Shown: positions 6,546-61,485, counted from the stretch's first letter. The stretch is 64,000 nt of DNA from Oscillospiraceae bacterium (GCA_009783265.1 WRHM01000009.1:29339-93338); one strand, 5' to 3'. Numbers and translations: made by a program. Notes: generated from the letters alone by a model not told the origin.

Positions 6546-6823
6546 ATTTTTTATGCTATAATATCTACGAAAAGAATTATTATGTACGCAGTTTGATTTA
6601 AGGCATAGTGCGAAACGAATTTATATAATGAACGGTATAGTTTTGACAATTTTTGGGGTGTTTTTACGGTTCTCTTTTATATTACAGCCTATGTTATATT
6701 AGCAGGATTTTTCGTTATCGAAAAATTTTTGCGTAAAAAGAGTGGAATATATCATTAAAAATGCCGACGAAACCGGATTATATATAGTTTCGCAATCGGC
6801 TAAAATAAAAATTTAATAGTGAG

Positions 6824-6833
6824 GGAAATTTAT
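6824..6833 (+). repeat. Cassette 5' core motif GGAAATTTAT (copy overlapping the SBP start codon)
   Basis: Same 10-mer as at 11156, 59355 and 30050 (rc). Confidence 0.5.
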
Positions 6834-8331
6834 GTTAATTAAAAAACTTATTTTTGCGATTATAGTTGCTTGTATAATTTTCACAGTATCATGCGGCGAT
6901 TCGAATAATCAAAATGTCAATGGCGATTCAATATCTAAAACTGATAATACGAATCCTGAAGAAAAAAACGAAGAAACAGGGGAGATTGCCGAAGCGCGCG
7001 TACTGCCCGATTTGCCGGAGCAAAACTACGGCGGATATAAATTCACATGGCTGGCATTTGATTACGGAGTCAGTCATCCCGGCTCTGTCAGTCAATTCCC
7101 GCGTGAACTTGTGGCAGAAGAAGGAGACGGCGATATTATAATCGACGCTACATACAGAAGAAATCTGACTATATCCGAAAAATACGGCGTGGAATTTGAA
7201 ATGATTACAACGACTAACGAAAAAACCACTCTTAATAAAGCGGTCAAAGCGGGTGACGATATTTATGACGCGGCGATGATTTTCAACAATAATGCGCCGG
7301 GCGTTATGTCAGCCGACCTGCTTCTCGACACAAGCAAGCTGACATATGTAGACTGGGACAAACCATGGTGGGATTCCGCAATAAAAGCAATATCAATAGC
7401 CGGCAAAAACTTTTTTCTCGCCGGAGATATAATGATATTGGACAAAGAAGCCATTAACGTTCTGTTTTTCAATAAAAAACTGATGGCGGACAACAACATG
7501 GAACTTCCGTATCAATCGGTTTTGGACGGGAAATGGACGTTTGACAAATTAGACAGCTATATCAAGGATTTTTCGAAAGATTTAAACGGCGACGGAGTAA
7601 TAGGCAAAGGCGATATGCTGGGGCTTTATATTATGAGCGACGCGTTTCATGCGTTTTATGTCAGCGGAGGCGGGCTTCTCGCGGAGAACGACAGGAACGG
7701 CATACCTCAGCCGACGTTTGGTTCGGAGCAGAGCATTTTGGTCATGGATAAAATAGCCGACGTTCTATTCGGAAAAGAATATGTCACGAATTTTCATACA
7801 AACCAGTGGGGTACGGAATGGGATATGTACGCATCGTTCAACGAAGGCAGAATGCTTACGATGTGGGGGCGTCTGTACGTCCTTGATTCTCTTAGAAATA
7901 TGGACGACGATTTCGGGATACTGCCGCTGCCGAAATACAGCGAATCTCAGGAAAAATATTACAGCGATGTAAATTCTTATTCAGGATACATGATAGGGAT
8001 TCCCAAAAGCGCGTCAAACCCCGAAAGGACAAGCGTAATACTCGAAGCGCTCGCGGCTGAAAGCAGATATACCCTGCTCCCGGCGTATTATGACATTACT
8101 TTGCAGAGGAAATTTACCCGCGACGAAGAATCCGGGGCAATGCTTGATATATTATTCAGCACTACAGTATACGATTCTGGCGGAGCGTACAATTTCGCGG
8201 ACACATGGATTCAAATGTCTGGTTTATGCGGTAAAGAAGACAGGAATTTTGCTTCGTGGTGCGAAAAATACGAATTAAAAGTACAGCAGGCAATAGATAA
8301 AATGGTCGCACAGGTCGAAGCTATGGAATAA
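6832..8331 (+). CDS. ABC-type extracellular solute-binding lipoprotein (carbohydrate type), orphan
   Basis: Lipobox IFTVSC. Size and composition are typical of sugar SBPs. No permease or ATPase genes are adjacent. Confidence 0.7.
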   Translation: MLIKKLIFAIIVACIIFTVSCGDSNNQNVNGDSISKTDNTNPEEKNEETGEIAEARVLPDLPEQNYGGYKFTWLAFDYGVSHPGSVSQFPRELVAEEGDGDIIIDATYRRNLTISEKYGVEFEMITTTNEKTTLNKAVKAGDDIYDAAMIFNNNAPGVMSADLLLDTSKLTYVDWDKPWWDSAIKAISIAGKNFFLAGDIMILDKEAINVLFFNKKLMADNNMELPYQSVLDGKWTFDKLDSYIKDFSKDLNGDGVIGKGDMLGLYIMSDAFHAFYVSGGGLLAENDRNGIPQPTFGSEQSILVMDKIADVLFGKEYVTNFHTNQWGTEWDMYASFNEGRMLTMWGRLYVLDSLRNMDDDFGILPLPKYSESQEKYYSDVNSYSGYMIGIPKSASNPERTSVILEALAAESRYTLLPAYYDITLQRKFTRDEESGAMLDILFSTTVYDSGGAYNFADTWIQMSGLCGKEDRNFASWCEKYELKVQQAIDKMVAQVEAME

Positions 8332-8407: not shown

Positions 8408-8422
8408 ATAAGCATTTTCTTC
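8408..8422 (+). repeat. Cassette 3' motif ATAAGCATTTTCTTC (copy 1)
   Basis: Exact 15-mer shared with 11978, 60732 and 29530 (rc). A 20-nt stretch is identical to copy 2 (agtataagcattttcttcag). Confidence 0.85.
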
Positions 8423-8464: not shown

Positions 8465-9607
8465 CTACGGCAGCATATTTATCATTTCCAGACATAAGCG
8501 GCCGTTATGATACGGGCATTTCCACGCGCCGCATAAACCGCCTGAATTTTTAACTGCCTCGCCGTTTTCGTTTACGTAAACATACCATTCGCCGTAAGGC
8601 GAGATAAAATAATTTTTGACGTAATTCCATAGATTTTCAGCGAGAATCATAGATTTATTATTGCCGTATAAATTATACTGATGAACGAGAGCGACTATCG
8701 CTTCAGCCATTACCCACCACGAACGCGCTTTATTTTCGATGCCGTCTGTGCAGTCATAATAAACGCCGTTTCTGCCCTCGTCCACAAATCCTTTTGATAT
8801 TACGTTTTGCGCGACTTTTTCAAGTTTCGGCGATAAATTATTTGTTATATAAGCATTGCCCAAAACTTCGCAGGCCCTGTAAATCAGCCATGATATTTCT
8901 ATGTCATGCCCATAAGAGAGCATATCCCCAACCGGGTTCATAAATTTGTCAAAATAGCATTCAAGACGGCATAATTTATCGTTATACGCTTTATCTATAA
9001 CAAGATTAATCGAATATTCCAGCGCGTTTCGCGCTTCTTCTGATTTTACAGCCTGATAATATTCCGTATATGCCTCGATTATGTGCAATAAAGTATTCAT
9101 CGTTCGGGTGTATTTAAAATCGCGCCTGTCGAAGTTATATAATTCAAGATAACCGTATTCGTCTCTGAATTTATTTTCGATTAAATCAAATATTTTATTG
9201 GCGGCATTCAAAGCCGGTTCGTGTTTGCTTATTGAATAATACGCGCTGATCGAATATAACGCAAACGCCAAAGCATAAGTGTGTTTTTGATTATCGTCGA
9301 TTTTGCCGTCGTATTCGACCGACCAGTAGATCCCGCCGTCGGCTGGATCGAGCATATATTTTTTTATAAATTCAAATTGCAGTCTGGCAAAATCAAATAA
9401 TTTTTCATCTTTTAAAATTTTATAGCATGAACTGTAATACCATAGTATTCTTGTCTGTAAAACTGCCGCCTTCGGAGCTTTTTTGCTGATTTTATTATCG
9501 CTGTCAACGCTGCCGTAAAACCCGCCGTATTGAGTATCGTATAAATTATTCCAGAACGGCAGCAAATCATTTGTCAGATGATTTTGAAATTCTGATTTGT
9601 TGAGCAT
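8465..9607 (-). CDS. N-acylglucosamine 2-epimerase (AGE) superfamily protein (cellobiose 2-epimerase / mannose isomerase-like)
   Basis: N-terminal LTNDLLPFWNN...GGFYGS. Alpha/alpha-toroid-like repeat pattern. C-terminal KCPYHNGR motif. Confidence 0.8.
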   Translation of the reverse strand: MLNKSEFQNHLTNDLLPFWNNLYDTQYGGFYGSVDSDNKISKKAPKAAVLQTRILWYYSSCYKILKDEKLFDFARLQFEFIKKYMLDPADGGIYWSVEYDGKIDDNQKHTYALAFALYSISAYYSISKHEPALNAANKIFDLIENKFRDEYGYLELYNFDRRDFKYTRTMNTLLHIIEAYTEYYQAVKSEEARNALEYSINLVIDKAYNDKLCRLECYFDKFMNPVGDMLSYGHDIEISWLIYRACEVLGNAYITNNLSPKLEKVAQNVISKGFVDEGRNGVYYDCTDGIENKARSWWVMAEAIVALVHQYNLYGNNKSMILAENLWNYVKNYFISPYGEWYVYVNENGEAVKNSGGLCGAWKCPYHNGRLCLEMINMLP

Positions 9608-9771: not shown

Positions 9772-11136
9772 ATGTCAAATATAGAAATACCGTCCTCGGT
9801 CAATACTAACTCAAAACCGTCGCAGCTCAAAATCACCGATGTAAGATTCACGGATATTGTCGGCGCGCCTATGCCATGCACATTGATGAAAATTTATACA
9901 AATCAGGGGCTTGTTGGTTTAGGCGAAGTTCGCGACGGAGCTTCGAGAACTTATGCCGAAATTCTCAAAAGCCGCATACTCGGCGAAAATCCGTGCGAGA
10001 TAGATAAAATTTTCAGGAGGATAAAACAATTCGGCGGGCAGGCGCGTCAAGCCGGAGGCGTCTGCGGCGTTGAAATCGCCCTGTGGGATTTAGCGGGCAA
10101 AGCCTACGGAGTGCCTGTATATCAGATGCTCGGCGGTAAATTCAGGGATAAAATCAGGATATACTGCGATACTGACGTTTCGGGTAAACATACCGGAAAA
10201 GACATGGGCGAAGCTCTTAAAAAACGCATGAATATGGGATTTACGTTTTTAAAAATGGACTTGGGAATCGGGATTTTATATCACGAAAAAGGAGCGTTGA
10301 ATGCGCCTCTGGGATTTTTGCAGGAACCGCAGGAAAACTGGGAAAAAAACAAAGGCGACGATCCGTCAATTAAAAGATACGCCCGCAACAGAAATTATGA
10401 TTATTATAATATAGCGCACCCATTCACGGGAATACATATAACAGAACACGGATTTGATATTCTTGAACAGTATGTCTCGGACGTAAGGTCAATTATCGGC
10501 TATGAAATTCCGCTGGCGATAGACCATTTCGGGCATATCTGCGTTGAAGACTGTATAAAACTCTGCCGCCGCATAGAAAAATATAATATAGCGTGGGCTG
10601 AGGATTTGATACCGTGGCAATATACGGACCAGTATGTCCGCCTGAGGAATTCTACGACTGTGCCGATTTGCACGGGGGAAGATATATATTTAAAAGAAAA
10701 TTTCAAGCCGTTGTTTGAAAAAGGCGGCGTTGCTGTGATTCACCCGGATTTGCTGTCAAGCGGCGGGATATTCGAAAACAAAAAAATCGGCGATATGGCG
10801 CAGGATTACGGCGTTGCGATGGCTGTGCACATGGCTGAGTCCCCTGTGACATGTATGGCGGCGGTTCACTCAGTCGCGGCTACCGAAAACTTTTTAGTCC
10901 TCGAAAATCACTCTGTCGACGTTGACTGGTGGGACGATATTGTGATAAAAAGCGAGAATAATAATCAAAAACTCGTGCAAAACGGATATATCGAAGTACC
11001 GGATAAGCCGGGTCTCGGAATCGATGATTATAACGATGAAATTATAAAAGAACATCTGCACCCGAGATTTCCCGAATTATGGGCTTCGACTGATATTTGG
11101 AACGACGAGTGGAGCCATGACAGGCTCTGGAGCTAA
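9772..11136 (+). CDS. Enolase-superfamily (mandelate racemase/muconate lactonizing family) sugar-acid dehydratase-like protein
   Basis: KITDVRF...YTNQGLVGLGE N-terminal capping domain. Barrel motifs AIDHFGH, WAEDLIP, GEDIY. Confidence 0.8.
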   Translation: MSNIEIPSSVNTNSKPSQLKITDVRFTDIVGAPMPCTLMKIYTNQGLVGLGEVRDGASRTYAEILKSRILGENPCEIDKIFRRIKQFGGQARQAGGVCGVEIALWDLAGKAYGVPVYQMLGGKFRDKIRIYCDTDVSGKHTGKDMGEALKKRMNMGFTFLKMDLGIGILYHEKGALNAPLGFLQEPQENWEKNKGDDPSIKRYARNRNYDYYNIAHPFTGIHITEHGFDILEQYVSDVRSIIGYEIPLAIDHFGHICVEDCIKLCRRIEKYNIAWAEDLIPWQYTDQYVRLRNSTTVPICTGEDIYLKENFKPLFEKGGVAVIHPDLLSSGGIFENKKIGDMAQDYGVAMAVHMAESPVTCMAAVHSVAATENFLVLENHSVDVDWWDDIVIKSENNNQKLVQNGYIEVPDKPGLGIDDYNDEIIKEHLHPRFPELWASTDIWNDEWSHDRLWS

Positions 11137-11153
11137 AAGTGATTTCATTAACG

Positions 11154-11167
11154 TAGGAAATTTATAT
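11154..11167 (+). repeat. Cassette 5' motif TAGGAAATTTATAT (copy upstream of GNAT-1)
   Basis: Exact 14-mer also found at 59353-59366 and 30046-30059 (rc). Confidence 0.85.
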
Positions 11168-11190
11168 TATGAACAGGAGAGAAAATTTAA

Positions 11191-11967
11191 ATGGATATTA
11201 ATAAAATACGCAGACAAATTATAAAAGAAGAAATGGAATTTCCTAAATCGTTCACGTTTTATGAGGAACGCGATTACGGTATATTGTATCATAATATTGA
11301 AAATCCAAATTCGGGCGACAGTAACCATTCTGTGATATATCCCGAAAGAATAACGGATTTGCGTTATGTGCTGAATGATATAGCAAATTTTTATGAAAGC
11401 AAAGGTAGCTCTTATTTATGTATTTATCACCCTTTTGTTGCGGATTATTTCATTGACAATGCGAAAATATTGAAGGAGTGCGGTTATGAATTTACTATCA
11501 GTCCCGATACTCCCGTTATGCTATTGACAGAAAAAAATAAAATAGACCTCCCAAAACGTCTTGATATACGTCATATCGCAAATTGGGATGAAAGCATCAA
11601 TAATGACGTATTAACGTGTGTAGCCAATAAAGAACATTTTACAACCGTAATAAAAAACAGCATGGGTGAGAACAACTATTTATTCATTGGTTATATTGAA
11701 AATGAAGCCGCCTCTTTGTTAGCCTTTCATGTATCAAAACATGGCGTTACAAGATTTGATGAAATGGGAACGGCTGAAAAACATAAAAATAAAGGTTATG
11801 CCCGTGAAATGAACAGATATGCGGCGGATTTTGTGCGTAACCATAATTTGCCGATAGCGTATCAATGGCCCGCCCATAAGACGTCCGAACGGATTACTAC
11901 TGAAGCGGGATTCAAGATAGCTTTCACTATACCGTCAGGTTCTGCAACGCTTGCCGAATATAGATAA
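11191..11967 (+). CDS. GNAT-family N-acetyltransferase (cassette gene G1)
   Basis: C-terminal acetyl-CoA motif region (FDEMGTAEKHKNKGYAREMNRYAADF). Own RBS cAGGAGag. Confidence 0.65.
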   Translation: MDINKIRRQIIKEEMEFPKSFTFYEERDYGILYHNIENPNSGDSNHSVIYPERITDLRYVLNDIANFYESKGSSYLCIYHPFVADYFIDNAKILKECGYEFTISPDTPVMLLTEKNKIDLPKRLDIRHIANWDESINNDVLTCVANKEHFTTVIKNSMGENNYLFIGYIENEAASLLAFHVSKHGVTRFDEMGTAEKHKNKGYAREMNRYAADFVRNHNLPIAYQWPAHKTSERITTEAGFKIAFTIPSGSATLAEYR

Positions 11968-11977
11968 ACCACGCAGT

Positions 11978-11992
11978 ATAAGCATTTTCTTC
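11978..11992 (+). repeat. Cassette 3' motif ATAAGCATTTTCTTC (copy 2)
   Basis: Exact 15-mer, 10 nt after the GNAT-1 stop codon. Confidence 0.85.
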
Positions 11993-12042
11993 AGTTCATT
12001 GTATTTTAACGCCACTGGCGCGCCGTGAAAGGAATTAATGGT

Positions 12043-12744
12043 ATGCCCGAAAAATTTGTATATTTTAATAATACTCCGGATATTGTTTCGTCAAATGTTG
12101 CGGAGCATATAAAAACTATTGGTTATACGCCTGTTTTTAGTGATAATAATATTGATTTAACGTCGGCAGAATGCGTAAATAATTTTCTTGAGCCGTATAA
12201 AGATAATCTTGTCGGGGCGGTATTGTCAAACCCTCCCGTGGCTGGGATGCGCGGCGGGATAGAAGATACAACCGATGAAATGTGGAATAACGCACGAGAT
12301 ATTTTTGTTGTGCCTATGTTAAATATAACGCAGGCCGTCGGGAAGATATTTATGGAAAATAAAAAAGGCAGTATTATATATTTAAATTCGGTTCACGCCG
12401 AAAAACCAATCGGCAACGGATTTTTATATACTACAGCCTGCGCCGCAGTGCAGGCGTTGTGCCGTGAAGCCGCTTTGATATACGGAAGATATAATATCGG
12501 CTGTTATAATATTATGAGAGGGATTGTCGAAGGCGAAGAAAAATATTTTACAAGCGATTATTCCCCGATACATCATAACAGCGAAATCAGATTCCCGAAA
12601 GAAAAATTGCCGGAAGCAAACAGTTTAAACGAATTATGCGCTTTTTTACTCGGCGGCGGAGCGTATATATTAAACGGGTCGGATTTGCGCGCCGACGAGG
12701 GATTCACGCTGTTTTACGGCAAATCGGGATATTATAAAAATTAA
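12043..12744 (+). CDS. SDR-like protein with degenerate cofactor and catalytic motifs
   Basis: Aligns to the SDR core (NSV...YTTACAAVQALCRE...YNIGCYNIMRG), but TGxxxGIG is absent (FNNTPDIVS) and YxxxK reads YTTAC. ATG at 12043 has an AAAGGA RBS. The track's GTG at 12025 is less likely. Confidence 0.6.
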   Translation: MPEKFVYFNNTPDIVSSNVAEHIKTIGYTPVFSDNNIDLTSAECVNNFLEPYKDNLVGAVLSNPPVAGMRGGIEDTTDEMWNNARDIFVVPMLNITQAVGKIFMENKKGSIIYLNSVHAEKPIGNGFLYTTACAAVQALCREAALIYGRYNIGCYNIMRGIVEGEEKYFTSDYSPIHHNSEIRFPKEKLPEANSLNELCAFLLGGGAYILNGSDLRADEGFTLFYGKSGYYKN

Positions 12745-19635: not shown

Positions 19636-19677
19636 TTTATTTTTTATTTAAAATTATTCAGGAGTATTTATTAATTT

Positions 19678-19930
19678 ATGAAAAGATTAAAAGATTATCT
19701 ATTGAACATGAATCCAAATTCAACGACTTACGAAGAATTATATGAGGGTAAAATGTTAGTCTGGCCCGTTCCGCTTGATTCTGACCCCGAATATATATAC
19801 GACAGCACATATTGGTATACAGTATCTGAACAGGTTATTTTACACAAGGAGAATTCTATGAAAAGATTAAAAGATTATTTATTGAACATGAATCCAAATT
19901 CAACGACTTATGACGAGATATATGAAGGGC
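19678..19930 (+). repeat. Tandem duplication of the 5' 60-codon module of the ATPase gene (period 180 nt)
   Basis: 19678-19737 and 19858-19917 are about 58/60 identical (both encode MKRLKDYLLNMNPNSTTY). Similarity decays afterwards (DSTYWYTVSEQ vs DSTYLYETLEHEQ). Confidence 0.85.
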
Positions 19931-21777
19931 TGATGGCTATTCCGGGTCAACCCCCGACACCGGTAAACGACAGCACATATCTTTATGAAACATTAGAGCA
20001 TGAACAAATAGCGTTTAAAATTGACAGGACACATAAACTTGCACTCGATAAACCTACTATCACGATAAGCATACCTATAAAAATGTTAGATTTAACTCCG
20101 AAAGATTGCAGTCATGTAGCGGCAAGCGATTATATTTTACGGTCTGCAAAAAAATATTTCGACGAGTTAAACGAAGAAATCATAAACCGAAAACGTCCCG
20201 CGAAAGAAACCGGAAGATATTATATTTATTCGCCCGGCGGCGAAGTTTTAAAACGAAACTGCGTATATTTTCAGGACGTTGAGAGAAAATATTACAGGCT
20301 TCTCGGATATAGAAAAGATAAATCAAAAGTAAACAATCATTATTTAATATCAATCCCGTCGATGTGGGACGACGTTCCTGAACTGCAAAGACTGCCCGAA
20401 TTCTGCGTGAATATTATGATACAGGTGCAATTACCCAATAAGCAGTTCAAAAAAACGATAAAAATGCTCACGCGTGATTTGCCGGACGCTGTTGACAGAT
20501 TTATTTTAGAATTTAACGTACAGAAACTTCGCGCAGCAGTCGCGTTAAACAAAAAACAGGAAGAAATACGCGAATGGCTCAGACAAAGCGATTACTGCGC
20601 GTTTATCGCTAACGGCGCGATATTGCCCAGAAAAGGCAACTCTCCCCTGCCTGCCGAAAACGCAGTCCCGTTTAAGTCTCCCGAATGTGACGAAATTACA
20701 GTCTGCGGACTTTTGGGCATGGGAATAAAAAAAGGCGTGACGGTTGTCACGGGAGGGGGTTATTCCGGCAAAAGCACTTTACTCGACGCAATCTCAGCCG
20801 GAATTTATAATCATATAAAAGGCGATGGCAGGGAATTTGTCATAACTGATGATACCGCGATAAAAATTTCGGCTGAGGACGGTCGGAGCGTAAAAAACAT
20901 AAATCTTTCCCAGTTTATAAAATGGCTGCCAAACAACGGTGACGTTTCACATTTTTATACAGAACACGCGTCGGGTTCAACGTCTCAGGCAGCGAACATA
21001 ATCGAAGCCGTGAATTTCGGTGCGAAACTGTTTCTGATAGACGAAGATAAAAGCGCGACGAATTTTATGATACGCGACGACATGATGAAAGAGTTGATAA
21101 AACGCGAGCCGATTACGCCGTTTACAGACAGGGTCCGGCAGTTATACGGCGAAGCCGGAATATCGACGATACTTGTTGTCGGGGGCAGCGGCGAATATTT
21201 ATCAGTTGCGGACAATGTTATCATGATGGACGAATTTCACGCGTTAAACGCAACGGAGCAGGCGAAAGAAATTTATAAAAACGTGAAAAATATCAACGGT
21301 TCTGTAGGGGCGCGCATTGCGCGACCGCAAAATATTCCGGAAACGGACGACCAATGGTCGCCCCTACAATCAAATAAATGCGAATGGTTCTCTGAGCGCA
21401 GATTAATCACAGAAAAATTTACTTCATATCCCAAAGAGAGCGAAGACGCTTACAGCGGCACGGAACGCCTTGAGATTTCAGACATGGGATTTATAATAAT
21501 CGGCGACGAAAAAATAGACGTAAGAAATCTGCACAATTTTATCTCGTTCGCGCAGATTAACGCCGTCGGATATATGCTGAGATATTTGGAACTGTCGAGT
21601 AGAGAAGCAGTCAGCGACATACAAAAAATCGTCGATGATTTATATGACATAATCGAAAAAAAAGGGGTAGAGTCTATTCATTCGACGTTTTTTAATTGTG
21701 AACGCTGGCTTGATATGCCGCGAAAATGCGAGCTTTACGCCGTAATCAACCGAATGAGGTTTGTTGATTTTATATAA
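19678..21777 (+). CDS. ABC-class ATPase domain protein (COG3044-type 'predicted ATPase of the ABC class')
   Basis: Walker A VTGGGYSGKSTLLDAI, Walker B LFLIDEDKSATNFM, and GDGREFVITDDTAIKISAEDGRSV typical of the family. Alternative start at 19858 has a better RBS (AAGGAG). Confidence 0.75.
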   Translation: MKRLKDYLLNMNPNSTTYEELYEGKMLVWPVPLDSDPEYIYDSTYWYTVSEQVILHKENSMKRLKDYLLNMNPNSTTYDEIYEGLMAIPGQPPTPVNDSTYLYETLEHEQIAFKIDRTHKLALDKPTITISIPIKMLDLTPKDCSHVAASDYILRSAKKYFDELNEEIINRKRPAKETGRYYIYSPGGEVLKRNCVYFQDVERKYYRLLGYRKDKSKVNNHYLISIPSMWDDVPELQRLPEFCVNIMIQVQLPNKQFKKTIKMLTRDLPDAVDRFILEFNVQKLRAAVALNKKQEEIREWLRQSDYCAFIANGAILPRKGNSPLPAENAVPFKSPECDEITVCGLLGMGIKKGVTVVTGGGYSGKSTLLDAISAGIYNHIKGDGREFVITDDTAIKISAEDGRSVKNINLSQFIKWLPNNGDVSHFYTEHASGSTSQAANIIEAVNFGAKLFLIDEDKSATNFMIRDDMMKELIKREPITPFTDRVRQLYGEAGISTILVVGGSGEYLSVADNVIMMDEFHALNATEQAKEIYKNVKNINGSVGARIARPQNIPETDDQWSPLQSNKCEWFSERRLITEKFTSYPKESEDAYSGTERLEISDMGFIIIGDEKIDVRNLHNFISFAQINAVGYMLRYLELSSREAVSDIQKIVDDLYDIIEKKGVESIHSTFFNCERWLDMPRKCELYAVINRMRFVDFI

Positions 21778-29130: not shown

Positions 29131-29151
29131 GTAGGGGACGCCGTCCCCTAC
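29131..29151. repeat. GC-rich palindrome gtaggggacg/ccgtcccctac (TAGGGG family-like), overlapping the DUF2493 stop codon
   Basis: Near-perfect 10-bp-arm palindrome with no T-run on either side. Confidence 0.6.
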
Positions 29152-29492
29152 AAAAATATTTCCACAGGTTTATTTAACTGATAGCATTTTATAACCGTAT
29201 CGGCCGTCCCCTTTGATTTACCGTCCCAGAAAGCCAGAACCATGTGGGCATACCTGACGATTTCAGAGTTTCTGATAAACGCGGCGGATTTGCCGTATCT
29301 TTTATATTCGGGCAAAAATTCTTTAAATAATAATCCGTGTTCTTTTGCGTAACGGTGCGCGAGAGTATCTATCCCCTCTGCGCCGCCGCTGACTATTTCG
29401 GTGCAGTTTTTGGGGATACTCCCGCATATTTTATCATACCAGTACTCTTCTTTGTTTTGTATATCTCTTGACCCGACTATCGCAACTCTCAT
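29148..29492 (-). CDS. DUF2493/SLOG-family protein
   Basis: MRVAIVGSRD...IVSGGAEGIDTLA...AFWDGKSKGT pattern of the DprA-like SLOG/DUF2493 family. No recognisable SD upstream. Confidence 0.65.
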   Translation of the reverse strand: MRVAIVGSRDIQNKEEYWYDKICGSIPKNCTEIVSGGAEGIDTLAHRYAKEHGLLFKEFLPEYKRYGKSAAFIRNSEIVRYAHMVLAFWDGKSKGTADTVIKCYQLNKPVEIFL

Positions 29493-29529: not shown

Positions 29530-29544
29530 GAAGAAAATGCTTAT
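29530..29544 (-). repeat. Cassette 3' motif ATAAGCATTTTCTTC (copy 3, minus strand)
   Basis: Exact 15-mer on the minus strand, overlapping the last base of the GNAT-2 stop codon. Confidence 0.85.
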
Positions 29545-30044
29545 TAGTGGGTGTTGTCAAAAATAAAACCAACCCATTCATCATTTTCTGTTCCGCACTC
29601 TTGAAAATCATCTTCTGTATATTCAGAAATTATAGACTTCCAAAATTTTCTGGCAGGAAAATTATTTGGTAATTGACACACTTCCCATTTCCCCCTGAAC
29701 ATATCAAAAGTAGCTTTTGCCGCAAAACTGCCTACTCCTTTTCGACGGTACTTTTTCATAATGAAAAATTCATTGATGGTGTGAGCATTTACATAGTGAC
29801 CGCTATTTTCTTTTACCAATACAAATCCGGCCAATTTTCCATCTACACGGATAAAGAAAGGGTGTCGGTTACTATCAGTCCATAAATAGTCTGTGTATGA
29901 ATAATTGAAATAACCATATTCATTAATATCTTCATTTTCAAATTCTGTAAAGTCATAATTGTATAAATTCATCAACTGAATAAAAACAGATTTTTGTTCA
30001 ATCAAGATAGGTTCAATTTTTATTTCCACATTAATACCTCGCAT
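29544..30044 (-). CDS. GNAT-family acetyltransferase (COG5628-like; cassette gene G2)
   Basis: FFIMKKYRRKGVGSFAAKATF acetyl-CoA motif. Alternative start GTG at 30029 is preceded by GAGGT. Confidence 0.75.
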   Translation of the reverse strand: MRGINVEIKIEPILIEQKSVFIQLMNLYNYDFTEFENEDINEYGYFNYSYTDYLWTDSNRHPFFIRVDGKLAGFVLVKENSGHYVNAHTINEFFIMKKYRRKGVGSFAAKATFDMFRGKWEVCQLPNNFPARKFWKSIISEYTEDDFQECGTENDEWVGFIFDNTH

Positions 30045-30045
30045 T

Positions 30046-30059
30046 ATATAAATTTCCTA
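30046..30059 (-). repeat. Cassette 5' motif TAGGAAATTTATAT (copy upstream of GNAT-2, minus strand)
   Basis: Exact 14-mer on the minus strand, immediately 5' of the ATG at 30044. Confidence 0.85.
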
Positions 30060-49636: not shown

Positions 49637-50563
49637 TTAATGCTCCTGTGGGTTCACATGAACCATGCAGTGCTTTACTCTGGGATTTACTTTTTCCACT
49701 GCGTCATGAATATTTTCGGCTATATCATGAGTTTGATTTAAACTCAGATTACCGTCTGCGCTGATTTCTATGTCAACGTATATTTTATCGCCAAAAAGCC
49801 TCGTCTTTAACTGGTCGATCTTAAAATCTCCCTGATTTTGTATTGCCTCGCGTATTTCTTCGATTGTTTCGTCGCTTGCAGTTCTATCAGTCATTTTGCC
49901 TATAGCGTCCATAAAAATATTATACGCCGCTTTTACTATAAATACACAGATAATAATACATGCCGCCGAATCCAGTATAGGAAACCCCAATCGCGCGCCG
50001 AGTATCCCCACAAAGCTGCCCACTGATGATAAAGCGTCGGAACGGTGGTGCCATGCCCCAGCCATCAACGCAGTCGAATTTATTTTTTTCGCGAAAATTT
50101 TCGTATACCAGAACAAGCCTTCTTTGACCGCAATCGAAACCACAGCCGCAATCAGTGCAAGCAGACCGGGTATAGCCAAACTTTGATAATCGCCTGAAAA
50201 AATATTTTTTGCTCCGCCGTATCCGATAACAAATCCGGTAGCGGCAAGAATTGCCGCGAGAATAATCGCCACAACGCATTCAAACCGTTCATGACCATAA
50301 GGATGCTCTTTGTCTGATTTTTTATTTGACAGTTTTATGCCGACCAAGACAATCGCCCCGCCTAAAATATCTGACATAGAATGGACCGCGTCTGATACCA
50401 TCGCCATCGAGCCGGCAATAATTCCGGCTGATAATTTAAAAGCTGTTAAAATTATATTGAACAAAATGCCGACAAAACTCACCTGTACGGCAATTTGTTC
50501 ATTGCTTTTACTGCTTTTATTTTTTTCGTTTGTATTTTTTGTATCGTTTATATCGTTTGTCAT
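49637..50563 (-). CDS. Cation diffusion facilitator (CDF) family metal efflux transporter (CzcD/FieF-like)
   Basis: Six TM with HSMSD and HHRSD metal-site motifs and a C-terminal cytoplasmic domain. GGAGGT RBS. Confidence 0.85.
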   Translation of the reverse strand: MTNDINDTKNTNEKNKSSKSNEQIAVQVSFVGILFNIILTAFKLSAGIIAGSMAMVSDAVHSMSDILGGAIVLVGIKLSNKKSDKEHPYGHERFECVVAIILAAILAATGFVIGYGGAKNIFSGDYQSLAIPGLLALIAAVVSIAVKEGLFWYTKIFAKKINSTALMAGAWHHRSDALSSVGSFVGILGARLGFPILDSAACIIICVFIVKAAYNIFMDAIGKMTDRTASDETIEEIREAIQNQGDFKIDQLKTRLFGDKIYVDIEISADGNLSLNQTHDIAENIHDAVEKVNPRVKHCMVHVNPQEH

Positions 50564-50671: not shown

Positions 50672-50735
50672 AAAAATAAAAAAAGCACACCAATAATGGA
50701 ACAATATTACTGTCCCACAGATGTGCGTGTAAATC
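50672..50735 (-). terminator. Intrinsic terminator forming the expression platform of the riboswitch-like leader
   Basis: GCACAUC...GGUGUGC stem followed by U7AU5. Its 5' arm overlaps the 3' strand of leader helix P4. Confidence 0.55.
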
Positions 50736-50805
50736 ACCTGCTGCCGCATTATCGCGACCCAGCCCCATAAACATTAAAATTAAAAGTTTATCGCCTGATC
50801 AGTTT
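50709..50805 (-). promoter_or_regulatory. Candidate NiCo (czcD-motif) riboswitch aptamer
   Basis: Four helices can be drawn: P1 ACUG/CAGU; P2 AUAAAC/GUUUAU; P3 GUCGC/GCGGC; P4 CAGGUG/CAUCUG. Junction strings are CUGGG, GCAGCAGG and CUGUGGGACAG. It sits between a consensus promoter and a CDF gene. Confidence 0.55.
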
Positions 50806-50855
50806 ATTTTGTACTGTAATTTATATGCAGTGCAAATAGTAGCCCTATATTTATT

Positions 50856-56131: not shown

Positions 56132-57934
56132 TTGAACAATGAAAGTGAAAGCAACGGCGGGCGGCCGCAAGGGTCTCCCCTGCGAATATATGGGATAAAC
56201 GGCCCTGTCGTGACTATATCCGGGCATACGGATCTGAGTATGCAGGAAATGGTGTTTGTCGGGGGGAAAAAACTGATAGGGGAAGTTATAAATATATCAG
56301 ACGATAAAACTACTATACAGGTTTACGAAAATACGACGGGGCTTTATTCGGGCGAGCCTGTGGAATCGACAGGTTATCCGATACGCGCTACTCTGGGCCC
56401 CGGTATGCTGTCGAATATTTATGACGGAATCCAAAGGCCTTTAAAAGCTATAGAAAATATATCGGGATATTATATTAAAACAGGGATAGATGTCTCCAGC
56501 ATAGATTATGAAAAAAAATGGGATATAAAAATTTTAGCAAACGAGGGGCAAAAAGTAAATCCCGGAGATATATACGCCGAATGCGACGAAACGTCTGTGA
56601 TAAAACATAAATTTATGATACCCGGCAATATTTCCGGTATTATAGAATCGGTTGTTTTAAACGGCAAATATTGCGTAAACGACGAGATTTTAAAAATAAA
56701 AACAGAATCCGGCGAAATTGCGAGTATTAATTTAACCGAAAAATGGGCGATAAGAAAGCCCCGGCCGGTTAAAGAACGTCTGGAGCCTAAAACTCCGTTG
56801 ATTACCGGGCAAAGGGTAATAGATACTCTTTTCCCGATAGCTAAAGGCGGAGCCGCCGCAATCCCCGGCGGATTCGGCACGGGCAAAACTATGCTCCAGC
56901 ATCAACTGGCGAAATGGAGCGACGCGGATATAATAGTATATGTCGGCTGCGGTGAGCGGGGCAACGAGATGACGCAGGTATTAGAAGAATTTTCTGAGCT
57001 TGTTGACCCGAAAACCGGCAAAAGTATGCTTGAGCGGACTGTTTTGATTGCAAACACTTCAAATATGCCTGTCGCGGCACGCGAGGCATCGATTTATACG
57101 GGGATAACGATAGCCGAATATTACAGGGATATGGGTTATCATGTTGCGATAATGGCGGATTCTACGTCAAGATGGGCTGAGGCGTTGAGGGAAATATCGG
57201 GACGGCTTGAAGAAATGCCCGCCGAAGAAGGATTCCCGGCTTATCTGCCGTCGAGATTATCGGCGTTTTATGAGAGAAGCGGGATAGTCGAAAATCTGAA
57301 CGGCAGTATCGGTTCTCTGACAATAATCGGGGCTGTGTCCCCTCAGGGCAACGATTTTTCGGAGCCTGTCACCCAGAATACAAAAAGATTTATCAGATGT
57401 TTTTGGGCATTAGAAAAATCTTTGGCTTATTCGCGGCATTACCCCGCGATAAACTGGACTACAAGTTACAGCGAATATCTTGTTGAATTAGACGGCTGGT
57501 TCACTGAAAACGTAAATCCTGAGTTTAACAAATGCCGCGCGATAATAAAAAATATACTGAACGATGAAAATCAATTAATGGAAATCGTAAAATTAATCGG
57601 CAGCGATTTGCTTGCCGACGACCAGAAATTGATTTTGGAGACTGCGCGGGTTATAAGATCGGGATTTTTACAGCAGAACGCCACGCATCAGAACGATTCA
57701 TATTCACCTATCGAAAAACAGTATCTCATACTTGAAGTTATAATAAAATTATACGACAGGGCAAAAGAATTAATATCGCGCTCAGTTCCTGTTTCGCAAT
57801 TAAAAGAGAGCGGTGTGTTTGACATGATAATACGCGCGAAGTACGAGATACCCAACGATAAATTGGAGATGTTCGGCGAATTGTTGGATAGTATAGAGAA
57901 GAAGATAAAAGAAATCGAGGATAGATATAATTGA
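56132..57934 (+). CDS. ntpA: V-type ATPase catalytic subunit A
   Basis: Walker [16 protein letters not shown] and [16 protein letters not shown] start with an AGAGGTG RBS. Codons 9-17 are encoded by a palindromic repeat copy. Confidence 0.9.
56156..56182 (-). repeat. TAGGGGCG-family palindromic element inside the 5' end of ntpA (21/23 identical to 1908-1930)
   Basis: gggcggccgcaagggtctcccct vs gggcggccgcaaaggtcgcccct. Its reverse complement is 19/21 complementary-compatible with 56082-56102. Confidence 0.7.
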
Positions 57935-59337
57935 TTATGAACAACATAGAATATATAGGATTATCACAGATAAACGGGCCGCTGATTGTTATCGACGGGA
58001 TAGAAAACGACTGTTATGAAGAACTCGTGGAAATCATAAGCAAAGACGAAAAACGTCTGGGAAGAATAATACAAATAGAGGGAAACAGAGCCGTTATTCA
58101 GGTTTTTGAAGGGACGAACGGCCTCTCCCTCAACAATACAAGAACGAGATTGCTCGGCGAGCCTATGAAATTTGCGGTAAGCAGGGATATATTGGGCAGG
58201 ATTTTCGACGGGGTCGGGCGGCCTATCGACGGCTACGGGGAAATATTCGCCGAAGCTAAGCTCGATATAAACGGCAGCTCGATAAATCCTGTGTCAAGAG
58301 ATTACCCGAGAGATTATATAAGAACGGGAATATCTTCGATTGACGGCTTGGCGACATTGATAAAAGGGCAGAAACTGCCGATATTTTCAGGGTCGGGCAT
58401 GAGCCATAACGAGCTTGCGGCTCAGATAGTAAGCCAAGCTAATGTCGAAGGCTCGGACTACGCGATAATTTTCGCCGCTATGGGCGTAAAAAACGACGTG
58501 GCGCAGTATTTCAGGCGTTCTTTTGAAGAAACGGGGGTTTTATCAAGAGTCGTGATGTTTATGAATCTTGCCAACGACCCTATAATCGAGAGAATCACAG
58601 CCCCCCGCTGCGCGCTGACTGCCGCTGAATTTCTCGCCGCGCAATACGGCATGGACGTTCTTGTGATTATGACCGACATGACTTCTTACGCCGAGGCACT
58701 GCGCGAATTTTCATCGGCGAAAGGCGAAATCCCGGGAAGAAAAGGCTATCCGGGATATTTGTATTCGGATCTGGCTTCGCTTTATGAAAGAGCGGGGAAA
58801 ATAAAAAATATAAATGGCTCTGTCACGCAAATCCCAATTTTAACTATGCCAAACGACGATATTACGCACCCTGTACCGGACTTGACGGGATATATAACCG
58901 AGGGTCAGATAGTTTTGTCGCGTTCGCTTGAACAAAAAGGGATTTATCCGTCGGTTTCGGTATTATTATCTTTGTCAAGGCTGATGAAAGACGGCATAGG
59001 GACAAAATATACGCGGGAGGACCATTCGGCAGTCTCAAACCAGCTATATTCTTCTTATGCCAAAGTCGAGGACGCGCGCTCTTTAGCATCAGTTATCGGC
59101 GAAGAAGATTTGTCCCCGATTGATAAATTATATATAGAATTCGGGCGCAAATTCGACAGTATATTTTTAAACCAGTCCAAATCCGACAACAGGACGATTG
59201 ATACTACGCTTGATTTAGGCTGGCAGCTTTTATCGCTTTTGCCAAAAGAAGAATTAGACAGGTTAGACCCGAAGCTTTTGGAGCAAAAATACGGCAAAGT
59301 CAATGTTATCGAGGATAATACGGATAGTATGAATTGA
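57931..59337 (+). CDS. ntpB: V-type ATPase subunit B
   Basis: [19 protein letters not shown] and the degenerate P-loop typical of B subunits. Confidence 0.9.
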
Positions 59338-59352
59338 TGTAAAGATTAAACT

Positions 59353-59375
59353 TAGGAAATTTATATTTTCTTCGT
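59353..59375 (+). repeat. Cassette 5' motif TAGGAAATTTATAT fused to left copy of 11-bp direct repeat ATTTTCTTCGT
   Basis: 14-mer identical to 11154 and 30046 (rc). ATTTTCTTCGT (59365-59375) recurs at 60738-60748. Confidence 0.85.
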
Positions 59376-59391
59376 AAAAAAAGGAGAACAA

Positions 59392-60714
59392 ATGAAGTAC
59401 AATCTTGAAATTAAAATAGTGCCGAAAGAACATTATATAAAAGTTAGCGGAAATATAAAAAATATAGAAAACGATATAAATTTATTTTATCTCAACGAAA
59501 ATTTTACGCTTAATAAATTAACAAACGGGCAAAACGATATTAAATATATACATGATAAAAATAAACCTCACCCTTTATATGACTTGACCTCGCGCCCTGT
59601 AATTTTGCAAACTGCTGTAAAAGAATTAGAGTTTGAATATGACGGGTATATTCCTGAAATAACAAACGATATAAACCAAATTGACGAAGATATTGTAGAG
59701 CTTTCAGGTTATTCAGGCTGGTATCCGAAAGATATTATATATACAGAAAATACCGAAACGCTTGAACCTCACATTAAAAACGGAGATTTTGCGTTTGAAT
59801 TGAATATCGAATTGCCAAACGAGTATATTTTTGCGGCTAACGCGGAAATAAAAAATATTGAAAAATCATCAAATATTACAATATATAATATTTCTTCATA
59901 CGGTGACGATTTTGATATTGCTCTTTTTGCCTCGAATAAAGTAGTAAAGATTGAAAAAAGCTTAAACGGAATTTATTTTTCTTCGATATGCCCATTTATT
60001 ATGGAAAAGAAAAACACGCTTAAATTAGATAATTTAATTGAGGGGCAAAAAATAATAACAGAGTTATTAGGCGAGCCAATCAAAAAGCAACCAACTTGTT
60101 TTATTAATCGTCCACGCGGCGGCTGGGGGTATGCACGAACTGCATTTGTTTCAATGCCCGGAATAACAGACGAGAATGACGAAAACTTAAAAGATTTGTC
60201 AGAAAAATCCATGATACTTAGTATCGGCGGAGATTTACACGAACTTTCTCATTTTTGGTGGGGCATTGCTTCGGGAATTGAGCCGGAAGATTGGATAAAC
60301 GAAAGCGGTGCGGAATTTACAATGCTTGCTGTTTTGAAAGATATGATTAAACTGGATGATTATAAAACTTTAATAGAAAAAAACGGATATATTAAACATA
60401 TAAATGAACTTGAATCAGAAGCTGCCATTTGCGAAACTAAAACAGACGAATGGGACGCAAGATATGTAAACAGATATGAAAAAACCGCAATTATGTATAT
60501 TGGCGCGGAAATTCGTTTCGGCAGAAAAAATCTTTTTGAATTTTTAAAAGAATTTTACAATCAGAATAAAACAGAATGTAATGCGACTACTGATAAATTT
60601 TTAGATATATGCGAAAAAGTTTTAGGAAAAGACTCAAGAGAATATTTTAATTGGCTATTATATGCAAAAGGCTGGAAAAATATTGATATAGAAAAAGATA
60701 TATTAAAATATTAG
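59392..60714 (+). CDS. M1-like gluzincin metallopeptidase (cassette gene P) inserted between ntpB and ntpD
   Basis: HELSHFWWG...WINESGAEF (HExxH plus a downstream WxNE Glu ligand). Own RBS AAAGGAG. Confidence 0.65.
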   Translation: MKYNLEIKIVPKEHYIKVSGNIKNIENDINLFYLNENFTLNKLTNGQNDIKYIHDKNKPHPLYDLTSRPVILQTAVKELEFEYDGYIPEITNDINQIDEDIVELSGYSGWYPKDIIYTENTETLEPHIKNGDFAFELNIELPNEYIFAANAEIKNIEKSSNITIYNISSYGDDFDIALFASNKVVKIEKSLNGIYFSSICPFIMEKKNTLKLDNLIEGQKIITELLGEPIKKQPTCFINRPRGGWGYARTAFVSMPGITDENDENLKDLSEKSMILSIGGDLHELSHFWWGIASGIEPEDWINESGAEFTMLAVLKDMIKLDDYKTLIEKNGYIKHINELESEAAICETKTDEWDARYVNRYEKTAIMYIGAEIRFGRKNLFEFLKEFYNQNKTECNATTDKFLDICEKVLGKDSREYFNWLLYAKGWKNIDIEKDILKY

Positions 60715-60731
60715 ATTTATTTATGTTCAAA

Positions 60732-60748
60732 ATAAGCATTTTCTTCGT
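60732..60748 (+). repeat. Cassette 3' motif ATAAGCATTTTCTTC (copy 4) + right copy of direct repeat
   Basis: Exact 15-mer, 17 nt after the peptidase stop codon, flanked by GTTCAA on both sides. Confidence 0.85.
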
Positions 60749-60781
60749 TCAACCAAAATTTATTACAGGTATTATAAATTT

Positions 60782-61393
60782 ATGGAAACAAATATATTCC
60801 CGACAAAAAGCAATTTATTGCAAACCAAACGCTCACTTGATCTTGCGAGAGTGGGCTTTGAACTTCTGGATAAAAAAAGAGTTATCATGCTGCGCGAAAT
60901 GATGTCGCTCATGCACGATATAGAAGGCGTTCAGGAACAAATCGATATAACTTTTGCCGATGCTTACGCGTCTTTGCAGAAAGCGAATTTTACTGTCGGG
61001 CAGAGCGAAATTTTGAATATCACTAATTATAATATTTTCCCCGACGATATAAATATCCAGTTTAAGTCAGTTATGGGAGTTGAGATACCTGTTGTATATT
61101 ATGACGAGAAGCCCCCAAAATTAAATTACGGGTTCGCGTTCACTAATTCTGATCTTGACGACGCGTATATAAAATTTCTTAAAGTAAAACATCTGACAGC
61201 AATGCTCGCCGCAATCGAAAACAGCGTTTACAGGCTTGCGTTCGCGATAAAACAGGCGCAGAAAAGGGCGAACGCTTTAAGAAATATAGTTATCCCAAGA
61301 CTTGAGCAGACAGTATATTTTATTACCGGCTATCTGGAAGAAAAAGAGCGTGAATCGTTTACGGTGCTTAAAGTTATAAAACATAAAAAATAA
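60782..61393 (+). CDS. ntpD: V-type ATPase subunit D (central stalk)
   Basis: N-terminal PTKSNLLQTKRSLDLARVGFELLDKKR and C-terminal coiled coil typical of subunit D. Confidence 0.85.
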   Translation: METNIFPTKSNLLQTKRSLDLARVGFELLDKKRVIMLREMMSLMHDIEGVQEQIDITFADAYASLQKANFTVGQSEILNITNYNIFPDDINIQFKSVMGVEIPVVYYDEKPPKLNYGFAFTNSDLDDAYIKFLKVKHLTAMLAAIENSVYRLAFAIKQAQKRANALRNIVIPRLEQTVYFITGYLEEKERESFTVLKVIKHKK

Positions 61394-61452: not shown

Positions 61453-61485
61453 TAATTAAATTTTTTATATTATGCGAAAAAATTG

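Follow-up and report, generated by a model that had tools for sequence, protein, structure and literature searches.

A GNAT gene occupies an intergenic region of a sugar-acid operon

We examined GNAT-1, a gene for a GNAT-fold acyltransferase that lies within a sugar-acid catabolic operon in a metagenome-assembled genome of an uncultured Oscillospiraceae bacterium. The DNA analysed, referred to here as the window, is a stretch of 64,000 nt with a GC content of 39%, and all coordinates are those of the window. A first-pass annotation, made from the sequence alone, had proposed that GNAT-1 is a cassette inserted into the operon and bounded by two short motifs. Domain searches confirmed the GNAT-1 open reading frame (ORF) between an enolase-superfamily dehydratase gene and the downstream genes of the operon, two SDR genes and an RraA/aldolase-like gene, and both motifs, called here the 5′ (left) and 3′ (right) blocks, are present where they had been placed. 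Protein alignment with orthologues showed that the ATG at 12043 is the true start of SDR1, so that the segment 11137–12042 is exactly the intergenic stretch; the Shine–Dalgarno sequence of SDR1 (AAAGGAA) lies within its tail. Upstream of the dehydratase gene, an N-acylglucosamine 2-epimerase-family gene (8465–9607) is located divergently, on the minus strand. The features of the locus are as follows.

9772–11136 (+): upstream host gene, enolase-superfamily (galactonate/mannonate-type) dehydratase, Pfam MR_MLE_N/C; the last core gene before the insert
11137–12042 (+): inserted segment of 906 nt, in place of a spacer of 5–29 nt in relatives
11144–11149 (+): left TTCATT, judged coincidental
11154–11167 (+): 5′ block, TAGGAAATTTATAT, with three exact copies in the window
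11165–11170 (+): −10-like hexamer TATTAT, followed by G; family form TATWWT (11 aligned left ends)
11169–11201 (+): mini-ORF ATGAAC...TAA, 10 codons, overlapping the GNAT-1 start; read from the sequence
11175–11179 (+): putative Shine–Dalgarno sequence AGGAG, 11 nt 5′ of the ATG; read from the sequence
11191–11967 (+): cargo gene GNAT-1, 258-aa acyltransferase with a tandem-GNAT fold according to the structure model
11978–11992 (+): 3′ block, ATAAGCATTTTCTTC, 10 nt past the stop codon
11995–12000 (+): right TTCATT, judged coincidental
12043–12744 (+): downstream host gene SDR1

The top NCBIfam matches of the dehydratase are galactonate dehydratase-type models, all under cut-off. The GNAT-1 protein is 100% identical to MCL1859546.1 (FWF92_09995). 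Its own Pfam match is sub-threshold (E 0.003–0.005), and its distant homologues match PF00583. The AlphaFold model (pLDDT 93, pTM 0.88), when searched against the PDB with Foldseek, retrieved as top matches 4ius, 3frm, VipF, MshD-like proteins and tandem GNATs, with E-values from 8e-12 to 1e-8. These results support a predicted GNAT fold, weakly at the level of sequence and clearly at the level of structure.

GNAT-1 is absent from the operon in relatives and is found in unrelated contexts

Orthologues of the dehydratase exist at 87–93% identity, and three relatives with dehydratases that are 87–92% identical (loci L125, L127 and L129) retain the epimerase gene on the minus strand and the dehydratase-SDR-SDR-RraA gene order. 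In all three, the dehydratase and SDR1 genes are adjacent, with no GNAT gene, and the junction consists of 5 nt in L125 (TAGaaaatATG), 5 nt in L127 (TAAagattATG) and 29 nt in L129, compared to 906 nt in the window. GNAT-1 is thus not a universal member of this type of operon, the finding that would have made it a pathway component: the same insert was present only in L281, which shows 98.5% DNA identity to the window over 7.5 kb and is probably a near-identical strain. Since the insert is shared with L281, it is fixed in two sampled assemblies of the lineage.

Homologues of GNAT-1 (68–88% identity) were found among unrelated genes in four contigs, L001–L004. The DNA homology to the closest copy, in L001 (89.5%), is confined to 11159–11988, i.e. 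from inside the left block to inside the right block, where it stops after ATAAGCATTTT. The composition of the gene is foreign to the operon, with a GC content at third codon positions (GC3) of 0.32, compared to 0.39–0.49 in the flanking genes. Taken together, the empty junctions and the homologues in other contexts support the reading of GNAT-1 as an insertion and not a member of the sugar-acid pathway.

The two blocks recur as exact copies around other genes of the window

The 15-mer of the right block has four exact copies in the window (8408+, 11978+, 29544..29530−, 60732+), compared to 3.8e-4 expected, and the 14-mer of the left block has three (11154+, 30059..30046−, 59353+), compared to 3.0e-3 expected. 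In 40 Markov simulations, the commonest 15-mer reached two copies in 38 runs and three copies in the other 2. Both motifs greatly exceed chance expectation. Variants of the 15-mer with one or two mismatches, and of the 14-mer with one mismatch, were not found in the window, and this all-or-none exactness argues for copying and against a degenerate functional consensus. Each of the three pairs of blocks in the window encloses one gene and lies on the strand of that gene. The other copies are arranged as follows.

29530–30059 (−): sister cassette of GNAT-2, with the 5′ block at 30059–30046, a GNAT of 161/166 aa at 29544–30044 and the 3′ block at 29544–29530
59353–60746 (+): sister cassette of a 440-aa protein, with the 5′ block at 59353–59366, the ORF at 59392–60714 and the 3′ block at 60732–60746
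8408–8422 (+): fourth exact 3′ block, 76 nt past the stop codon of an SBP_bac_1 gene (6832–8331)

The GNAT-2 cassette (GC3 0.28) lies between galK and a DprA/SLOG fragment. The cassette of the 440-aa protein, which has a weak M1-peptidase-like match and a GC3 of 0.26, interrupts a V-ATPase operon (57931–61393) between the genes for subunits B and D, and host homology picks up at 60755, 8 nt past its 15-mer. Overall, the three block-bounded cargo genes have GC3 values of 0.26–0.32, compared to 0.37–0.50 in neighbouring core genes. Directly downstream of GNAT-2, on the minus strand, a 114-aa ORF (29148–29492) has a partial DprA match (profile positions 47–97 of 212) and a match to YAcAr SLOG; these matches identify it as either a fragment or an independent SLOG protein.

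The V-ATPase junction was compared in three relatives with an 88–91% identical subunit D (L247, L248 and L249), and the dehydratase operon in the three relatives described above. Each of the relatives examined has a distinct set of inserts at operon junctions, including junctions of these two operons other than those filled in the window.

L247, V-ATPase B–D junction: a sigma-70-family factor and a DUF4097 protein
L248, V-ATPase B–D junction: a methyltransferase and a GNAT
L249, V-ATPase B–D junction: no gene, only a 9-nt spacer; A and B are separated by an HTH gene
L125, dehydratase operon: own insert, a Fic gene
L127, dehydratase operon: own inserts, an Rce1-like gene, a YgjV gene and a two-gene unit ending in ATAACCATTTTCTTC
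L129, dehydratase operon: own insert, two genes without assigned function

That the inserts differ in every relative, at both operons, implies a high turnover.

Cassettes of the same design are found in metagenome contigs

Metagenome contigs were scanned with a 21-position pattern, consisting of the 15-mer and loosely constrained neighbours; as the neighbouring positions −3 to −1 and +1 to +3 were set by the pattern, conservation there carries no information. Most of the matches are due to chance. However, 26 of the 117 matches listed lie outside ORFs, compared to 5 of the 120 listed in a scan of a genome collection and 0 of 30 in a scan of viral contigs, and 19 of these 26 directly follow a co-oriented ORF. 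The remaining 115 matches listed in the genome collection are inside ORFs and represent single chance matches. In the viral contigs, all 30 matches of a 17-mer are coding, so the motif does not appear to be linked to phages.

Among the metagenome matches listed, at least about 20 are cassettes of the same design with unrelated cargo; this count includes L160, L162, L196 and L200, which had been assigned to ORFs by a filter for ORFs of 80 aa. The left block is present at the expected spot in at least 10 of the ~13 cassettes that have their 5′ region on the contig, and since it was outside the search pattern, these cassettes were retrieved through the 3′ block alone. One and, rarely, two unrelated accessory genes lie between the blocks. 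The cargo includes two S-adenosylmethionine (SAM) methyltransferases, GNATs, transglutaminase-like, pectin-acetylesterase-like, VanW and metallo-beta-lactamase-fold proteins, small membrane proteins and unknowns, with no mobility protein among the cassette cargo listed. The contigs that bear the 15-mer range from 26 to 57% in GC content. The cassettes cluster in a few sample series of the Joint Genome Institute (JGI), which we take to be from higher-termite hindguts, and a second sample series carries ATAAGCATTTTCTTCATTYGCAAT.

In some contigs, the genes are stacked. In L153 (2670–4480), from the second sample series, there are three tandem units, each consisting of a gene, ATAAGCATTTTCTTCATTTGCAATGTG..., a spacer and GAGTATTTATAT, and two near-identical spacers of ~340 nt lie on either side of a DUF2262 cargo gene. 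This array is preceded by phosphoglucomutase-family, methyltransferase and DUF975 genes, and its repeated spacer holds an 80-aa membrane ORF. Runs of same-strand accessory genes with repeated spacers between them were also found in L001 and L003. In L003 (3598–16774, and in L004), at least 12 such genes directly follow dnaA, among them methyltransferases, GNATs, an aminoglycoside-resistance-like protein and an alpha/beta-hydrolase; the repeated spacer of 200–300 nt contains a coding remnant, a GC-rich hairpin and a promoter, TTGATGG...TGTATAATGCYTAT. In L001 (6980–8000), one and the same element of ~65 nt, AACGCCGGACGTTGCRATGTAGGGGCGGATGGCARTCCGCCC..., with a hairpin, is found ahead of both a methyltransferase gene and the GNAT-1 homologue, and this methyltransferase (76% DNA identity) is also found inside the V-ATPase operon of L248. 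Finally, in L232 (3963–6182), a cassette of the ATTYGCAAT subgroup adjoins a MobA/VirD2 relaxase gene, and this copy may be on a mobilisable element.

The left block resembles a promoter

Alignment of 11 left ends gave the family consensus (g)TAGRAAATTTATAT WWTG, which can also be written (g)TAG(R)AAATTTATAT-WWTG. It extends over ~20 bp and is followed by a Shine–Dalgarno sequence and ATG; nothing further to the left is conserved, and a conserved −35 box is absent from the aligned ends. The WWTG position was read as part of a −10 box, because the triplet at this position varies (ATG, TTG or CTG) across the family and because core genes share TTTATATWWTG. The left-block core is best read as a −10 hexamer (TATWWT) followed by G, without a conserved −35 box, and the cassette would thus bring its own promoter. 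A consensus promoter scan did not call this box, because there is no −35 element. Of the left block, only the TAGR prefix is specific to the cassettes. A 13-mer, AAATTTATATAAT, has four copies in the window, which lie upstream of genes.

The first-pass annotation had instead suggested that the left block carries a start-codon remnant, since ATGAAC follows both this block and a degenerate copy of it. ATGAAC is indeed present from 11169, as is GAATTTATATAATGAAC near 6617, but the variable triplet and the presence of the same box before core genes speak against a remnant, and the mini-ORFs differ between cassettes. As its frame and length are not kept in L001 or in other cassettes, the mini-ORF at 11169..11201 is probably not functional.

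A sigma-H-type promoter was also considered: GTAGGAAAT fits RNAGGAWWW, but no RNNGAAT was seen by eye at the correct spacing, and this candidate was rejected. A left-block-like box, AAAAATTTTATATAATGTGCAGAAG, is located at 493–511, 129 nt 5′ of a gene for an AraC-HTH/APH-like kinase fusion (622–1881), a further candidate for an acquired gene, in this case lacking a 3′ block.

The right block has no terminator-like site and resembles the left block

In eight cassettes, the TAA within the 15-mer serves as the stop codon of the cargo gene. An intrinsic terminator at the 3′ block was rejected, as the terminator scan found no terminator-like site after it; no hairpin was found at the block, and it had no Rfam match. 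When reversed, the right block (AGAAAAT-GCT-TAT) agrees with the left block (AGRAAAT-TTA-TAT) at ~10 of 13 positions, and, read in this way, each block is an imperfect inverted copy of the other (AGRAAAT...TAT versus ATA...ATTTTCT). An intact palindromic landing site, AGGAAATTTATATTTTCT, was noted at 59354 and rejected, as it was not found elsewhere as a family.

The GNAT-1 gene is probably the cargo of a mobile cassette

Our favoured explanation, which we regard as probable, is that GNAT-1 is the cargo of a horizontally acquired single-gene cassette, from an undescribed family with conserved ends, which was inserted in the direction of the operon and was moved by functions encoded elsewhere. 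The cassette would have landed, in operon orientation, in the very short spacer between closely spaced, co-transcribed sugar-acid genes, of which the dehydratase and SDR1 genes are probably translationally coupled. The left block would then provide for expression of the cargo wherever the cassette lands and, because there is no terminator, transcription of the operon or of the cassette would read through into the downstream genes. The blocks may be the sites of a recombinase or transposase encoded elsewhere, for which a tyrosine, serine or HUH-type enzyme is favoured over a DDE transposase because target duplications are absent, and an exchange of cassettes may take place between arrays on one strand and solitary sites at operon junctions. 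Recognition of the cassette ends by a dedicated enzyme is a tentative suggestion, which we hold to be possible and would not yet call probable. With similar reserve, we propose that the block pair could represent an undescribed, enzyme-driven cassette system of gut Clostridia, which places promoter-equipped genes into operon junctions and can stack them in arrays. In such a system, conservation of the 15-bp 3′ terminus would extend across genera, with the machinery encoded elsewhere, perhaps as a host function.

Several observations weigh against this explanation. Domain searches of the ~54 ORFs of the window revealed no recombinase or transposase, nor was one present within 8.8 kb beyond the end of the window, and none adjoins the other cassettes, save for the relaxase near L232. 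In particular, there was no Phage_integrase-type match in the window ORFs or in the L153, L232, L155, L177 and L144 loci. No autonomous copy, circular form or excised form was seen. No target duplication of 2–8 nt, at any offset, was consistent across 11 cassettes. This bears on the TTCATT that the first-pass annotation had noted on both outer flanks as a possible target duplication: both copies exist, the left one starting at 11144 and not at 11145, but TTCATT is unique to this cassette, is absent from the three empty sites and does not abut the conserved blocks, and a flanking 6-mer of this type was found in 1 of 11 cassettes, which is no more than chance, so that a duplication is not supported. 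Outside the blocks, a stretch of 17 nt on the left side and one of up to 50 nt on the right side are neither host-like nor conserved, and hence the exact cassette ends are undefined; alignment of these outer flanks to the L001 spacers or to the L129 host spacer gave no significant homology. The inverted-repeat relation is limited to the ~10 of 13 positions and is not kept in the L153 group, which has GAGTATTTATAT as its left block. Hypothetical circle junctions folded better than shuffled sequences in two of six cases and no better in the other four, with z-scores near 0. The left-block core is a generic promoter-like box that precedes core genes as well (at 493, and at 61464 before the serine hydroxymethyltransferase (SHMT) gene).

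The blocks and the genes can, moreover, occur separately. The SBP_bac_1 gene has only the 3′ block, with merely degenerate 5′ motifs at 6617 and 6822; its composition is host-like (GC3 0.47), and it appears to be native. Conversely, a 91%-identical copy of GNAT-2 in L280 lacks the 15-mer, with homology ending at the stop codon, and the L248 inserts carry no blocks. It follows from the latter two cases that the blocks are not required for a gene to reside at such junctions, and they may decay or be trimmed after insertion. Before the SBP_bac_1 gene, at 6617–6700, the degenerate left block, GAATTTATATAATG, is followed by a hydrophobic mini-ORF of 24 codons, MNGIVLTIFGVFLRFSFILQPMLY, 130 nt from the gene.

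No insertion sequence (IS) bearing the blocks was found among the genome-scan matches listed, most of which are due to chance, and a plasmid search (tblastn) with two cargo proteins gave no match. Insertion of the IS200/IS605 type was not supported, since there is no fixed left flank of 4–5 nt and there are no subterminal hairpins, and one of the four window copies is on the other strand. A literature search, which covered the two motifs as well as integron-like cassettes from Firmicutes or the termite gut, retrieved nothing relevant.

Comparison with known systems and alternative explanations

Mobile insertion cassettes (MICs) and elements resembling miniature inverted-repeat transposable elements (MITEs) that carry passenger genes are likewise non-autonomous, with short inverted repeats around a gene and a transposase presumed to act in trans. 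However, MICs such as MIC231 of Bacillus cereus have the full ends of a known IS and target duplications, whereas here the inverted repeat is weak (~10/13), no duplication was found and no cognate IS is known. The pdif modules of Acinetobacter plasmids are discrete modules with short, inverted conserved sites, without target duplication or a recombinase of their own, and host Xer proteins act on their 28-bp, 11-6-11 XerC/XerD sites. Here, the cassettes are in chromosomal operons, with no demonstrable 11-6-11 architecture, and no 11-6-11 palindrome was seen by eye in either block; ATTTTCTTCA presumably resembles the right arm of the streptococcal difSL site. Phage morons also consist of a promoter and a single, compositionally deviant gene between conserved operon genes in the same orientation. 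They are located within prophages, usually with a terminator behind the gene, and are not known to have conserved ends in common, whereas the present cassettes are in chromosomal housekeeping DNA, next to metabolic genes, V-ATPase genes and galK.

Gene cassettes of integrons, including those at secondary sites and in arrays that lack an integrase, are likewise compact one-gene units with diverse cargo, in same-strand arrays or solitary, without target duplication or a mobility gene of their own. The GNAT-1 cassette could thus be a classical integron cassette at a secondary site, and the single compact ORF, the arrays in some contigs and the typical cargo spectrum (GNAT, methyltransferase, metallo-beta-lactamase-fold and, in L162, a protein that is glyoxalase-like by eye, with no Pfam match) agree with this. 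However, neither the window nor the scanned loci gave a match to a tyrosine recombinase (IntI) domain. An attC site is an imperfect palindrome of ~57–141 nt, with R''/L''...L'/R' boxes and GTTRRRY at the crossover, whereas the conserved block here is 15–18 nt long with no stable fold, and no imperfect palindrome of 60–140 nt with RYYYAAC...GTTRRRY lies 3′ of the gene. In addition, short blocks are conserved at both ends, a promoter-like box is carried, and the insertions are within conserved operons of a Bacillota genome, of the Oscillospiraceae lineage. We therefore consider an integron cassette very improbable. A different possibility is that the blocks are shared expression signals, the left block being a strong promoter of the lineage and the 15-mer a 3′ regulatory site (e.g. 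an RNA- or DNA-binding site, an antisense promoter or a processing site), which together mark a regulon of accessory, detoxification-type enzymes whose genes arrived by unrelated events. This would fit the presence of TTTATATWWTG upstream of SHMT and other genes, the four copies of AAATTTATATAAT upstream of genes and the reverse complement of the 15-mer, which, with its frequent AGT prefix, is TGCTTATACT and is −10-like, as well as the L003-type promoters (TGTATAATGCYTAT). Such signals would not, however, be expected as exact, all-or-none copies without a degenerate spectrum, limited to compositionally foreign genes that are missing from relatives, nor as identical 15-mers on contigs of widely differing GC content, nor would the homology of a gene to its relative stop inside a block. 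On balance, this explanation is improbable.

As the main alternative, the cassettes could be derived, without a dedicated enzyme, from same-strand arrays in which the genes would normally lie, if RecA recombination between neighbouring spacers looped out a circle of cargo and one spacer. The circle could re-enter arrays by homologous recombination, or integrate at an operon junction through an illegitimate (microhomology) event in which the spacer is broken. In this model, the repeated spacer has the 15-mer at its beginning and the promoter block at its end, and a break within it would place the promoter to the left and the 15-mer to the right of the cargo. The two near-identical spacers of ~340 nt around one cargo gene in L153 are the exact product expected of integration via the spacer, and the spacers repeated between accessory genes in L001 and L003 point in the same direction. 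This would also account for variable and non-host sequence lying outside the blocks, and for the lack of both target duplications and a recombinase, and the direct repeats GTGA at 11139 and 12025, at the outer junctions of the GNAT-1 cassette, could be its trace, but they are only 4 nt long. It leaves unexplained why 15 of 15 bases are identical at one end of the spacer, on contigs of 26–57% GC, while the interior varies; no array bearing these exact blocks was found in the lineage of the window itself, and, as noted above, the outer flanks lack significant homology to the L001 spacers or to the L129 host spacer. We regard this explanation as rather unlikely.

Implications of a cassette family without mobility genes

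To return to the favoured reading, if the cassettes are truly mobile, they would provide a compact route for adding accessory enzymes to essential operons while leaving the operon unbroken, and a few-base spacer, the right orientation, an own promoter and the lack of a terminator would describe the mode of landing. Cassette-style gene flow, known mainly from the integrons of Proteobacteria, would then extend to uncultured gut Bacillota. Standard searches for mobile elements would miss these cassettes, because they have no integrase, transposase, attC site or target duplication. Searching for the exact 15-mer would be a simple way to recover the whole family and its cognate enzyme.

Other features of the window

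A direct repeat of 72 nt (19677–19748 and 19857–19928), 92% identical and with a spacing of 180 nt, lies at the 5′ end of a PF09818 ABC_ATPase gene (19678–21777), where it forms an in-frame duplication of the N-terminal 60 codons, start codon included. A NiCo (nickel/cobalt) riboswitch (71 bits) is located at 50708–50812 on the minus strand, upstream of a cation-efflux gene (49637–50563) on the same strand.

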